A model generated the notes under the pieces. That model searched no databases and had not been told where the DNA came from. It saw only the letters and a program-made list of their open reading frames with translations. From assembly GCA_951406725.2 (NCBI GenBank), contig OX597822.1, forward strand, positions 20,398,001 to 20,462,000: 64,000 nt of DNA, written 5' to 3'. Numbering within the stretch: position 1 is the stretch's first letter; each line of letters starts with the position of its first letter. Shown in pieces: positions 13,205 through 63,849 of this stretch. Position numbers and translations under genes: made by a program. Origin of the DNA: Octopus vulgaris (taxonomy: Eukaryota).

Positions 13205-13208
<4 letters not shown>

Positions 13209-13848
13209 TGACGTATATTTGCCATTTGAATATGGCTAACCCCTAAGGGTGGATGCTACTGTAGTTTGTAGCCCCAGGAAGACACCTCCTCCAGCTGGCT
13301 ATAGACACACTTTCTGTGACCTATCAGTATTTGTGAAGGGAAGCCATCCTTCTCGTCTTCAACTTATGATACACACGGACTCGAGTTTCAAGGTATTGAC
13401 CTATCATCGGCGTGTGACAATCATAGTTGTCGACGAGAAGTCAGTTCCCCTCACAAATACATATACTTTTTCCAGTATCGATTGACACTGATATTGAAAA
13501 AGTGAAATCAAACAATGAAAATCTCAGAGCGAGTTATAAACAGTAGCGGCAACACATCGGGACGTATATTTGCCATTTGAATATGGCTAACCCCTAAGGG
13601 TGGATGCTACTGTAGTTTGTAGCCCCAGGAAGACACCTCCTCCAGCTGGCTATAGACACACTTTCTGTGCCCTATCAGTATTTGTGAAGGGCACAGAAAG
13701 TATTTGATAGGGCACAGAAAGTGTGTCTATAGCCAGGCTACAAACTACAGTAGCATCCACCCTTAGGGGTTAGCCATATTCAAATGGCAAATATACGTCA
13801 CGATGTGTTGCCGCTACTGTTTATAACTCGCTCTGAGATTTATCATTG

Positions 13849-13850
<2 letters not shown>
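13205..13850 (-). mobile_element. Hammerhead-bearing element: 351-bp unit, ~135-bp partial tandem copy and ~150-bp inverted tail, within (TA)n
   Basis: 13205-13340 repeats at 13556-13691 (offset 351). ~13705-13850 is the reverse complement of ~13512-13676 with an internal deletion. (TA)n on both sides. Confidence 0.88.
13372..13416 (-). ncRNA. Type I hammerhead ribozyme, U4C core variant
   Basis: cacacg-CCGATGA-tagg-tcaata-cctt-GAAA-ctcgag-TC-cgtgtg; 6-bp stem I; palindromic ACTCGAGT; GUC triplet. Confidence 0.8.
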
Positions 13851-14019: not shown

Positions 14020-14520
14020 AATGAAATCCGTCGGAAGGATAATCCTAAGGACAAAGAAATAAGAACCCACAATATGGTAGAAGCCATAGCCACTCATAAT
14101 AAGAAGGAATACTGTTGGAATGTACAAGTGAAGACCTCAATAAAATTTAAACACAACAGACCTGATATAAAGTTTTGGGGGATAGAGAAGAGAAACTGTG
14201 CAGAGTTGTGGAAATCAGCTGTCCAGCGGATATTAACATAAAACTGAAGATCAGTGAAAAGGAGAATACCAATGCTGAATAATTAAGAAATCTGCAGTTA
14301 TTCTGTCCAGAGGACCATTTCAAGCTTATACCTGTAATTATTGGGGCCCTCGAATATGTAACACACTGCCTATATACCAATTTTGAAAATTTAGGCTTCT
14401 CAAAACCAGAAAAGAGAAAGCTAATTCTAAGACTACAGATCCAATTCATCACTGGAACTGTAAAAATCTGTAAAACTTTCCAGAAGTTTATCATTTAAAT
14501 ATATACGAGCATGTCTAGAT
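14020..14520 (+). mobile_element. R4/Dong-like non-LTR retrotransposon 3' fragment (restriction-like endonuclease), decayed
   Basis: HNRPDI...DREEKLCRVVEISCPADINI...EKEN...FKLIPVIIGAL, with stops and frameshifts. Followed by (CATA)n. Confidence 0.75.
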
Positions 14521-22052: not shown

Positions 22053-22326
<274 letters not shown>

Positions 22327-22850
22327 CATATTGAAAGACTTCAGACAAAGAACATGCCTCCTCATTGATATGACTGTCCCAATCGATATAAACGTATCTG
22401 TCAAGACCTACCAAAAACTGAGCAAATATAAAGATCTTGAAATAAAAATCAGCAAAATGTGGAAGCTGAAGACTAAAACAATACCTGTTGTCATAGGTGC
22501 CCTGGGAATGATAGCGAAAGGGACTGATTGCTACCTAACTCAGATACCAGGAAACCCCAAAATGGCAGAAATTCAAAAGATAGTGCTCATGGGAACTGCT
22601 CATATCCTACGCAAAATACTCTCTATGTAATCCCAAGGTTTAAAACAAACTTTTTTTTATTTAATTTTTTTTTTTTAAATTTTATTTTTTTAAAATTTTA
22701 TTTTTATGTATTAGACATTCACTAGTACAACAAAAAAACCCCAAAAGAAACCCAAATATATGGCACAGAACTTCCAACCTGTTGTCTCTTGAGGTCTCTG
22801 GGTGAGACTTGGAGCCAACTTGTACAGACATAAAGCAAAAGTCAAACATA

Positions 22851-27945: not shown

Positions 27946-28258
27946 CAGAAAGTAAACAGCCGAAGTACTCTGGATCCTGCCTGCTTTGTGTGTTTGTGTG
28001 TGCGTGTATATGTGTTTCTAAATGGCTAACATGTGTCTTCCACGCTGCAATTGTTCCAGTTTCAACATTAACAAAGACACACACACACACAAGGAAATTG
28101 AGTCGCTGATCAAAACATATAGTATGCAGGTACATTACCGAATATATATATATAATAGAAAAGAGTGAAAAAAATACAGAAGGCTTGTTTTATAAGGTTA
28201 AAGAATATATTTAAGTCGTTACGTTAGAAAATTTTGTGTATAGTAACATAGTTTTTGG

Positions 28259-28295
28259 AGAAATAACCGGTTTCGTGTAAACTTTTCAAATTTCT
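28259..28295 (-). ncRNA. Minimal type I hammerhead with compensatory U3-A8 core, in a PLE 3' UTR/pLTR
   Basis: agaaat-TTGAAAA-gt-ttac-ac-GAAA-ccgg-TT-atttct; 6-bp stem I; palindromic ACCGGT; ~235 bp downstream of a GIY-YIG ORF on the same strand. Confidence 0.7.
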
Positions 28296-28528
28296 TTACC
28301 TACATGTCTTCGTTATGTAGTGCAAAGAAGAGTTCCAGGCAGGGGAAGGTAATCAGGGATTTCTTCCGGTATAAGGGAGATAATCGCTTTATATTTTTTT
28401 CTTTTTTTCAATGGGATGAGTTTCTTTGTATAGGAATGTTAGGATGGTTAAGTTTAGGTTTTTTTTCTTTTTTTCCAATGAGATGAGTTTTTTTGTATAA
28501 TAATGTTAGGATGGTTAAGTTTAGGTTT

Positions 28529-29090
28529 TTATTTTTCAATGAAGAATGTTTCCTTGTTTAATCTAATTTGTGTTGGTGTTCCGATAGCACATTGATAGAA
28601 TGGAGAGATTAAAAATTGTGGTAGTAGTTGCTTTGCGCATTTCTTAATATGCTCACTAAAGGGTATCATTCTGTATTCTGGGAATGCAATCTGTCGTCGA
28701 TGCAGAGTGCATCTGCGTCTGAGTGATAATCCCGTGGACCCTACGTAGTTTTGGTGGCAGCCCGAGCATCTTATGACATAAATTATGTTTTCTAAAGCAC
28801 AAGTAAAATTAGATTTGATCTTGAATTTTTGTTCCTCTTTGAAGAGGAATTCTGATCCTTCTAGAAGGTTTGGGCATGTTGCGCAGTTTGGTCTATCACA
28901 TTTTTTTACTTTTGCATGCGTAATTTCAGAAAACAATTTTGCCTTTGTGAGGATCTTTTTTAGTGATTTAGGTTGTTTGTAGCTTTTAATGATTTTATGT
29001 ATGTTTAGAATTTCCTTTAATTTGGGGTCCTTATGAAGCATTGGTAAATTCTGGGTGAAGGCTTCTTTGTTTCTGGGGTTAATCCCTGAA
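28529..29090 (-). pseudogene. Penelope-like element GIY-YIG endonuclease fragment, 5'-truncated
   Basis: ORF 28529-29041 KKCDRPNCATC...NFTCALENIIYVIRCSGCHQNYVGSTGLSLRRRCTLH...LNKETFFIEK. Confidence 0.88.
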
Positions 29091-29496
29091 ACACTAGAAT
29101 GTAAAGCGAGGAAGACAAATGAAAAGATACAAAATTTGGTGATAAGCTACATACCACGATTTCACTGTTATAATTTATAAAACGTGATGTCAGCAGCCCA
29201 TCAGTGCAGTCGTCATATAAGTTCTTTCCGGATTCAGCGCGCCAGAATGAAGACATTTGAAATATACTCACAAATATAATAGAACTTTATACATGTTCTC
29301 TTTTGCGAGGACGTCTCGTGTCTGGTTCTGTGAATTATGTTTTCTATATGACGGCTGCACTGATGAGCTGCGGATATTTACGTTTTGTAAATGGTATGTA
29401 GCTTATCACCATGGTATGCAGCAAAACTATGGTATGTAGCTTATCACCAAATTTAGTATCTTTGCATTTGTCTGGCTCGCTTTACATTCTGGCGTT
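29091..29496. repeat. Diverged inverted repeat (~130-bp arms) abutting the PLE fragment
   Basis: 29091-29219 is approximately the reverse complement of 29346-29496, with a small internal duplication (atggtatgtagcttatcacc twice). Confidence 0.85.
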
Positions 29497-39310: not shown

Positions 39311-39443
39311 TTTTCTACATATAAATAATGTATATATATATATATATAAGTTTGGCGCGAATGCGTTGGTCTTGAAAATTTTAAGACAGATATTCCTGAG
39401 GCATTGATACAGTCGCCTCGTGTATATTCGTCTCTCCCAGGTT

Positions 39444-39544
39444 TCTTTTACTGATGAAGTGTGACCTATGGTAGACTAGCTTAATTTAATTTAATTAAGC
39501 TGGTCTATCATTAAAAACACAGAAACGATGCATCGTATAAAAGA
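39444..39544 (+). ncRNA. Type I hammerhead ribozyme, canonical core, extended stem II
   Basis: tctttta-CTGATGA-agtgt-gacct-[~19-bp hairpin]-taaaa-acaca-GAAA-cgatgcatcg-TA-taaaaga; 7-bp stem I; 12-nt palindrome ACGATGCATCGT; GUA at 39535-39537. Confidence 0.9.
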
Positions 39545-39663
39545 TGAATTAGGGTAAACGTTTTTAAATTTTCACCTTATTTCCGAATTGCACTACTTGG
39601 CGGTTTGAGTTCTGGCTGCTCTTTCTGGTGGACGAATGGCCTGTTAAGGCCATTCCTAAATTG

Positions 39664-39722
<59 letters not shown>

Positions 39723-47434: not shown

Positions 47435-48341
<907 letters not shown>

Positions 48342-63119: not shown

Positions 63120-63161
<42 letters not shown>

Positions 63162-63191
63162 TATATATAAAATTATCAATATATATATATA

Positions 63192-63790
63192 TTGACTATT
63201 TTTTTTTTGCACGTTAGACCACTGGAAATGTAAATTTTGATTGAATGTTTTAATTTTAATTAAATTCCATTTCCCTTTGACATGATTAAATACTGTAAGT
63301 TTTTGGATAATTTTCGGTTAAAAGTTGGCGGCTTTTCATCGTAGCCAACGAAGGACTGCGTCTGCGCAGTAAAATTTGAAAAGTTAGTTCGTATAAACAC
63401 GAGACAAGTAACCTTGTTTGTCTTGTGTTGGATATGTTTAGCCCTAGGTTTGACCTTGCTGAAGAATATCAGACCTTGTGAGTTCTCCTTGACTCGCTAA
63501 AAGATGATCAGAAACCAATTGGTCCAAGGAACTAGATAGTAAATGTTTTTCATTTCCAAATTTATTCCTGTCGAATTTTATCCGTTATTTTTGTGGTTTA
63601 CAGAACCTAGCTGTTCTTTCTAGCGTGCTGAATTCCCTATAAGTGGATTCTTTATGTGTTTAAATATACACTATATCGTATGACTAATATATAGTCTTCT
63701 TGACTAATTTTTTTTGCACGTTAAACCACTGGAAATGTAAATTTTGATTGAATGTTTTAATTTTAATTAAATTCCATTTCCCTTTGACAT
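63192..63790 (+). mobile_element. Hammerhead-bearing element: 507-bp unit plus ~91-bp terminal direct repeat, between TA-rich tracts
   Basis: 63192-63283 repeats at 63700-63790 (offset 507). One HHR lies inside and no ORF is present. Confidence 0.88.
63454..63529 (+). ncRNA. Type I hammerhead ribozyme, canonical core, extended stem II
   Basis: ccttg-CTGAAGA-atatca-gacct-[gtgagt/actcgc]-taaaa-gatgatca-GAAA-ccaattgg-TC-caagg; palindromic ACCAATTGGT. Stem I extends past a TGA bulge (ctaggtt/aactag). Confidence 0.9.
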
Positions 63791-63800
63791 TTATATATAT

Positions 63801-63849
<49 letters not shown>

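Follow-up and report, generated by a model that had tools for sequence, protein, structure and literature searches.

Near the right-hand end of a 64,000-nt stretch of Octopus vulgaris contig OX597822.1 (the window, numbered from its first letter) lies one copy of a dispersed, non-coding hammerhead repeat family with a 508-nt unit. The unit occupies positions 63192-63699 of the forward strand and has a GC content of 34%; unit positions are window positions minus 63191. The features of the locus are as follows.

63122..63191, no strand: left (TA)n-rich target flank
63192..63699, +: 508-nt unit
63224..63274, +: long hairpin just before 3' site A
63276..63292, +: 3' site A in the first unit (unit 85-101)
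63295..63447, +: candidate retained intron, by motif only; its donor is GTAAGT and its closing AG falls on the 5' strand of helix I
63324..63349, 63355..63370 and 63396..63429, +: three extra hairpins
63444..63535, +: whole type I hammerhead (motif scan; predicted activity)
63444..63447 with 63532..63535, +: hammerhead helix Ib
63454..63458 with 63525..63529, +: hammerhead helix Ia
63459..63465, +: hammerhead core CUGAAGA
63466 and 63510, +: extra A on each side of helix II
63467..63471 with 63505..63509, +: helix II, with an inner hairpin at 63478..63483 and 63492..63497
63511..63514, +: GAAA of the hammerhead
63514..63523, +: helix III, palindromic
after C63524, +: predicted cut (unit 333/334)
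63522..63536, +: zone in which 5' ends of copies pile up (unit 331-345), predicted cut to foot of helix I
63675..63696, +: 3' site B, TA-like, in which an AUAUA loop is closed by 5 bp of hairpin (63682..63686 with 63692..63696)
63700..63791, +: tail repeating unit positions 1-92, which ends at 3' site A and joins (TA)n there
63792..63846, no strand: right (TA)n/(CA)n target flank

The unit and its predicted hammerhead

The direct repeat (63201-63292 and 63708-63799) is 92 nt long, with 95% identity and a spacing of 507. BLAST aligned 63192-63283 with 63700-63790 over 92 columns at 96.7% identity, with two substitutions and one gap in a T run, and because of that gap the unit length is given as 508 nt. 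Only two ATG ORFs of at least 20 aa overlap the unit, and they encode 20 and 26 aa. These results bear out most of the initial annotation of the locus, which had reported direct repeats offset by 507 bp with about 91 bp of redundancy, no ORF, additional hairpins, all three of which could be placed, and TA-rich flanks, which are present on both sides. The predicted fold of the unit is branched, with 61% paired, and its energy of -128.1 kcal/mol (z -4.75) was equalled in none of 100 shuffles. A second intron-like stretch, 63539-63603, runs from a GT after the family's ATG to TTTACAG, the ATG itself being lost in the window copy. Among 274 genomic segments there were 8 deletions or gaps, and none of these matched either candidate intron as a spliced copy would.

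The motif scan found a single hammerhead in the unit; it is of type I, lies on the forward strand only and has an extended helix I that contains an internal loop. It had been annotated as an intact mid-unit ribozyme, a description that is true of the core, since all core letters are present in the window copy, but doubtful for the predicted fold, in which the helix II pair 10.1-11.1 is mismatched (U.C) and an extra A flanks helix II on both sides. Among 52 distinct ribozyme copies this pair is A.C in 31, A-U in 8 and G-C in 7, and U.C occurs in the window copy alone; the whole core is kept in 42 of the 52. The hammerhead fold of the window copy lies 2.6 kcal/mol above the predicted minimum. 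In an alignment of 11 copies from three subfamilies 92.9% of cells are paired and 6 pairs have two-sided changes, which is support for the structure rather than proof, since the copies were hand-picked and the structure was drawn from the same sequences. Positions 63448-63450 and 63472-63474 could form a pseudoknot between loops I and II (93% of cells paired, two-sided changes 0 in the same alignment). Rfam returned no hammerhead among 150 listed of 198 window matches, nor among 3 local matches at E up to 10.

Dispersed copies, their 3' ends and their targets

A copy search of the octopus's own genome (2.8 Gb) gave 1597 candidates, of which 40 were scored, and the best places were 89-96% identical. 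A 24-mer of the window copy's subfamily had 129 exact matches and a 21-mer of an older subfamily had 459, with 0 matches for the controls in each case. Family copies are colinear with the unit at 63192-63699, and subfamilies down to about 80% identity retain unit, ribozyme and ends; one of them has a U4C core. Two further subfamilies were found by way of loose contig ends from runs presumed to be RNA. Contigs of four such presumed-RNA runs covered 22 to 28 of 30 bins and contained no joints, in an assembly form that is blind to strand, ends and circles. A-to-G editing fixed in the copies was considered and rejected, since rare variants were not enriched for such changes (45 A>G against 93 T>C; A>G rate lower, p 0.10). 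The consensus libraries in the supplements of the retrozyme papers might already contain the 508-nt family.

Ends were mapped in two samples. Sample 1 consists of 100 listed of the 129 24-mer matches, after 8 rows from other searches were dropped, and the older sample of 100 listed of the 459 21-mer matches, less one row that was part of a sample-1 locus (99 left). The matches are arms rather than independent insertions, and sample 1 represents 83 loci.

The initial annotation had proposed comparing permutation points among genomic copies, and the comparison shows the 3' end fixed at two sites and the 5' end alone variable. In sample 1 (100 arms) the 3' end is at site B (unit 484-508) in 58 arms, at site A of the next unit (85-110) in 37 and elsewhere in 5; in the older sample (n=99) the corresponding numbers are 52, 38 and 9. 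Sites A and B are about 107 nt apart, and both are TA-like and merge into (TA)n. At the 5' end, 59 of 100 arms in sample 1 meet an inverted arm, and typically both outer ends of such insertions are 3' ends. In 127 of 144 insertions one or both flanks have a (TA)4 or longer run within 40 nt, against a background of 19%, and target-site duplications are unreadable in (TA)n. The fixed 3' ends, inverted arms, tail and (TA)n targets form the footprint of a Penelope-like element (PLE).

Copies are dispersed and span 0.2 to 1.7 units, and dimers and arrays are absent in the samples. Chains longer than 508 nt make up 14 of 96 in sample 1, the longest being 882 nt, and 8 of 98 in the older sample. Two loci, L112 and L028, span two ribozymes; the window copy has one. 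In L084 and L087 there are internal jumps from unit positions 331 and 322 to about 207, as if a cDNA had stopped near the cut and resumed upstream.

The window holds other elements with comparable features. A second hammerhead family, at 39345-39665 on the forward strand (loci L219-L298), has a 475-nt unit and 274 matches with at most one mismatch. Its 3' ends fall at two sites that are TA-like (73 and 24 of 100), 55 of its arms are inverted, its multimers reach 2.3 units and its helix II is likewise flanked by an extra A on either side; it resembles the 508-nt unit only weakly, in the surroundings of site B and in the tail (E 0.008 and 0.03). At 1-720 there is an inverted pair of a third hammerhead element, with cores at 465 (+) and 227 (-) and helix II once more flanked by an extra A on either side, and a hammerhead-like motif lies at 877 (-). 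At 13205-13850 a 351-nt unit is followed by a 136-nt repeat and an inverted arm in (TA)n, and a scan for the type I motif did not find a hammerhead there. This element had been cited as an unrelated second example of a unit with a partial repeat, and rightly so: it has that layout and no BLAST similarity to the 508-nt unit. Fragments at 14050-14500, 22300-22630 and 47900-48250 adjoin microsatellites and, by their motifs, look like ends of restriction-like endonuclease LINEs.

5' ends near the predicted cut

The variable 5' ends of sample 1 are unevenly distributed along the unit. The stop rate drops from 0.011 per nt to 0.004, and the change point that fits best is unit 331 (range 324-339), a strength matched by 0 of 2000 constant-rate simulations. 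When a single arm was drawn from each locus, the change point stayed at 331 every time (200 of 200). Twelve 5' ends lie in unit 331-345 and none in 316-330; of the 55 cDNAs reaching the zone 12 stop in it (p 0.003 for a pile-up at the predicted cut), and step tests centred on the cut gave p 0.0006, 0.00002 and 0.0001 for 15, 30 and 60 nt. Sample 1 was not blind, because overlapping copies examined earlier had already shown the cluster. The older sample is independent, and in it the interval from -3 to +11, fixed on sample 1, is enriched (13/946 versus 58/9993, p 0.007); the step at the cut is not significant there (p 0.21, 0.10 and 0.60 for 15, 30 and 60 nt), and because this sample mixes subfamilies the mapping is blurred inside helix II. 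The unrelated 475-nt family has no pile-up (p 0.52), and its step at the cut is likewise not significant. Among the titles and abstract openings listed by literature searches none reports a comparable pile-up, which is a weak check.

We lean slightly towards ribozyme cleavage as the cause of the pile-up. Somewhat less likely, but still a serious rival, is stalling of the enzyme as it enters the folded ribozyme, or a transcription start there. Few sample-1 ends lie exactly at the cut (331, 333 and 334), and four lie at unit 345, the first base outside helix I. The older sample has a broad peak from -7 to +25, including 9 ends 2 to 14 nt beyond the cut, at positions that cut RNA cannot give, and an in vitro study of PAc describes cleavage as dispensable and reads ending at the cut as absent (PMC11167929). 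Stalling should, however, persist inside the ribozyme, where sample 1 has 0 ends over 645 nt at risk, and the other stable hairpins of the unit are without a comparable step.

Probable mobilisation and relation to known elements

The 508-nt repeat has the insertion shapes of Penelope-type elements. It was probably copied in trans by the reverse transcriptase/endonuclease of a Neptune-type Penelope element, the template being an RNA that either exceeds one unit or is circular. The enzyme would nick a (TA)n target and begin reverse transcription inside the RNA, with site B as the first start site and site A as the second; both strands would often be primed, giving two arms that meet head to head, and variable stopping places would leave variable 5' ends. 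The window copy would have started at site A and run for 600 nt, and its 92-nt redundancy would then be due to the tail and a chance stopping place. With one ribozyme, the window copy would release no unit-length RNA by itself. A part of the template pool may well be ribozyme-cut RNA, on which a minority of cDNAs would stop at or just short of the cut, the remainder reading through uncut or re-ligated RNA.

The window contains a fragment of a possible kind of donor. A 3' piece of a PLE lies on the reverse strand at 28200-29146 (loci L211-L218), and its fragment 28529-29146 belongs to an abundant family with 18762 candidates and ORFs of up to 850 aa. The label Neptune for this family is provisional and follows from its motifs and from PMC8557442. 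Pfam gave no name to the GIY-YIG-like window fragment. There is a long N-terminal extension in L211 and L213, and the family runs into (TA)n at two ends, which are separated by about 40 nt. By eye, a minimal hammerhead-like motif with a U3-A8 core lies downstream of the ORF, a core variant also described in PMC4209133. Near the start sites of the 508-nt family, the 475-nt family and the autonomous PLE there is, again by eye, a motif of TAGT, a pyrimidine loop, ACTA and a T run (at 63680-63720 in the window's 508-nt copy), possibly a common enzyme-binding site. The Neptune-like PLE represents a plausible kind of donor rather than an established one. The following count against copying by a Penelope enzyme as we describe it: the tail of about 107 nt exceeds the 30-40 nt of PLE tails, and both start sites resemble the target, which the PAc start site does not (PMC8557442 and PMC11167929); and with the one PLE family compared, the most abundant, the unit has only 15-16-nt matches (E 0.05-0.17) and so no autonomous partner with common sequence there.

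The initial annotation had offered two readings of the layout, a solo pLTR with its tail and a permuted copy of a circular or multimeric RNA of about 507 nt, and each has held in part. In the former, the copies would have been left by an autonomous PLE with an upstream ORF, through insertions truncated at the 5' end. The repeat is indeed a PLE-type tail, the ribozyme, two ends and tail parallel the pLTR of the genome's autonomous PLE, and the intron-like signals end at helix I, as in D. virilis Penelope according to PMC4209133. Yet in all 8 of the rows extending beyond unit position 1 the sequence continues with the end of the unit itself, no RT/GIY-YIG extension was encountered, and no PLE ORF is present in 31 loci scanned for frames of at least 110 aa. 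The flanks of 144 insertions (1.2-1.5 kb, samples that are part of the family; list read by eye) have nothing in common but other repeats and microsatellites, whichever way round they are compared. The wrapping and the lack of a linked ORF make the unit a self-contained non-autonomous element, and a solo pLTR is very unlikely. Wrapping, together with copies of more than one unit, also means a template longer than one unit or circular, as the second reading had it; that reading fails as to permutation, the 3' ends being fixed in 95 of 100 arms. Whether cut monomers are ligated to a 508-nt circle that serves as the main template and is copied round and round, as in a classical non-LTR retrozyme, is a tentative matter, on which we incline somewhat to the negative; this would be compatible, as a sub-case, with Penelope-type copying. 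The type I hammerhead, low GC and strong folding agree with such a circle, as do copies that cross the cut site, among them the two loci with two ribozymes. Repeated passes share 52 and differ in 110 non-consensus letters over 2308 sites; rare letters mostly differ and the others are mostly shared, as a circle would predict, but a homogeneous linear multimer fits the shared letters equally, and pass-to-pass identity was discarded as a test between the two because it does not discriminate. Some linear ends would also be needed for the pile-up, and chains of two units number 0 of 96 in sample 1 and 0 of 98 in the older sample, versus 4 of 84 in the 475-nt family, although few dimers are expected under either a circle or a multimer given the measured stop rates. 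An integrated copy of a viroid-like replicating circular RNA would suit the size, structure and ribozyme, but viroid-like RNAs would have the ribozyme on both strands and a rod-like fold, not one strand and a branched fold at 34% GC. The genome moreover has copies in the hundreds, diverged into subfamilies of about 80% identity, and this origin is extremely improbable.

The Penelope-type footprint has parallels among known elements. PLEs are described with partial tandems, an inverted copy, a tail and a bias to microsatellites (PMC8557442), and with two internal start sites and both strands extended (PMC11167929). With endonuclease-bearing PLEs (Neptune and Poseidon PAc; PMC8557442, PMC11167929 and PMC4209133) the 508-nt family has in common partial tandems, an inverted 5'-truncated arm, an optional tail between two start sites, an upstream hammerhead, microsatellite targets, a palindromic helix III and a helix II with an additional base at its 5' foot. 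It differs in having no ORF, a tail of about 107 nt, start sites that look like their (TA)n target, a further additional A at the other, 3' foot of helix II and a pair 10.1-11.1 that is mismatched in most copies. Metazoan non-LTR retrozymes, as presented by Cervera and de la Pena 2020 (PMC7229834) and Li, Clavereau and Pollet 2026 (10.64898/2026.07.22.740005), are likewise short, non-coding, low-GC units with a type I hammerhead and a proposed dependence on PLEs, but are about 300 nt rather than 508 nt and form tandem arrays of at least 2 units, which the 508-nt unit does not in our samples; no pLTR relative was found. Since it lacks that tandem arrangement, we file the unit as a retrozyme-like non-autonomous PLE. 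Non-autonomous Chlamys PLEs such as MRC1 (PMC8557442) also make pLTR-like partial tandems; they are green algal, and their 3' ends resemble autonomous families, whereas the 508-nt unit had only 15-16-nt matches to the one PLE family compared.

The element is of a previously known type, and the family carries a partly replicated footprint of possible cleavage. As to the role of the hammerhead in PLEs, one in vitro study found cleavage to be dispensable and saw RNA ending at the cut in no case (PMC11167929); that PLEs mobilise animal retrozymes is a proposal rather than a demonstrated fact (PMC7229834 and 10.64898/2026.07.22.740005). It is conceivable, though we hold it only tentatively, that the family is a fossil record of germ-line hammerhead cutting, made from cut linear RNAs together with read-through uncut or circular RNAs, with a cut share that differs between families. 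If so, cutting would limit copy length and explain the absence of arrays in the 508-nt family, and the share of cut templates would be clear in this family and absent in the multimer-rich 475-nt family. With mapped start sites, a measurable pile-up and the sister 475-nt family as a negative control, the 508-nt family makes both questions, the role of the hammerhead and mobilisation by PLEs, testable with short RNAs.
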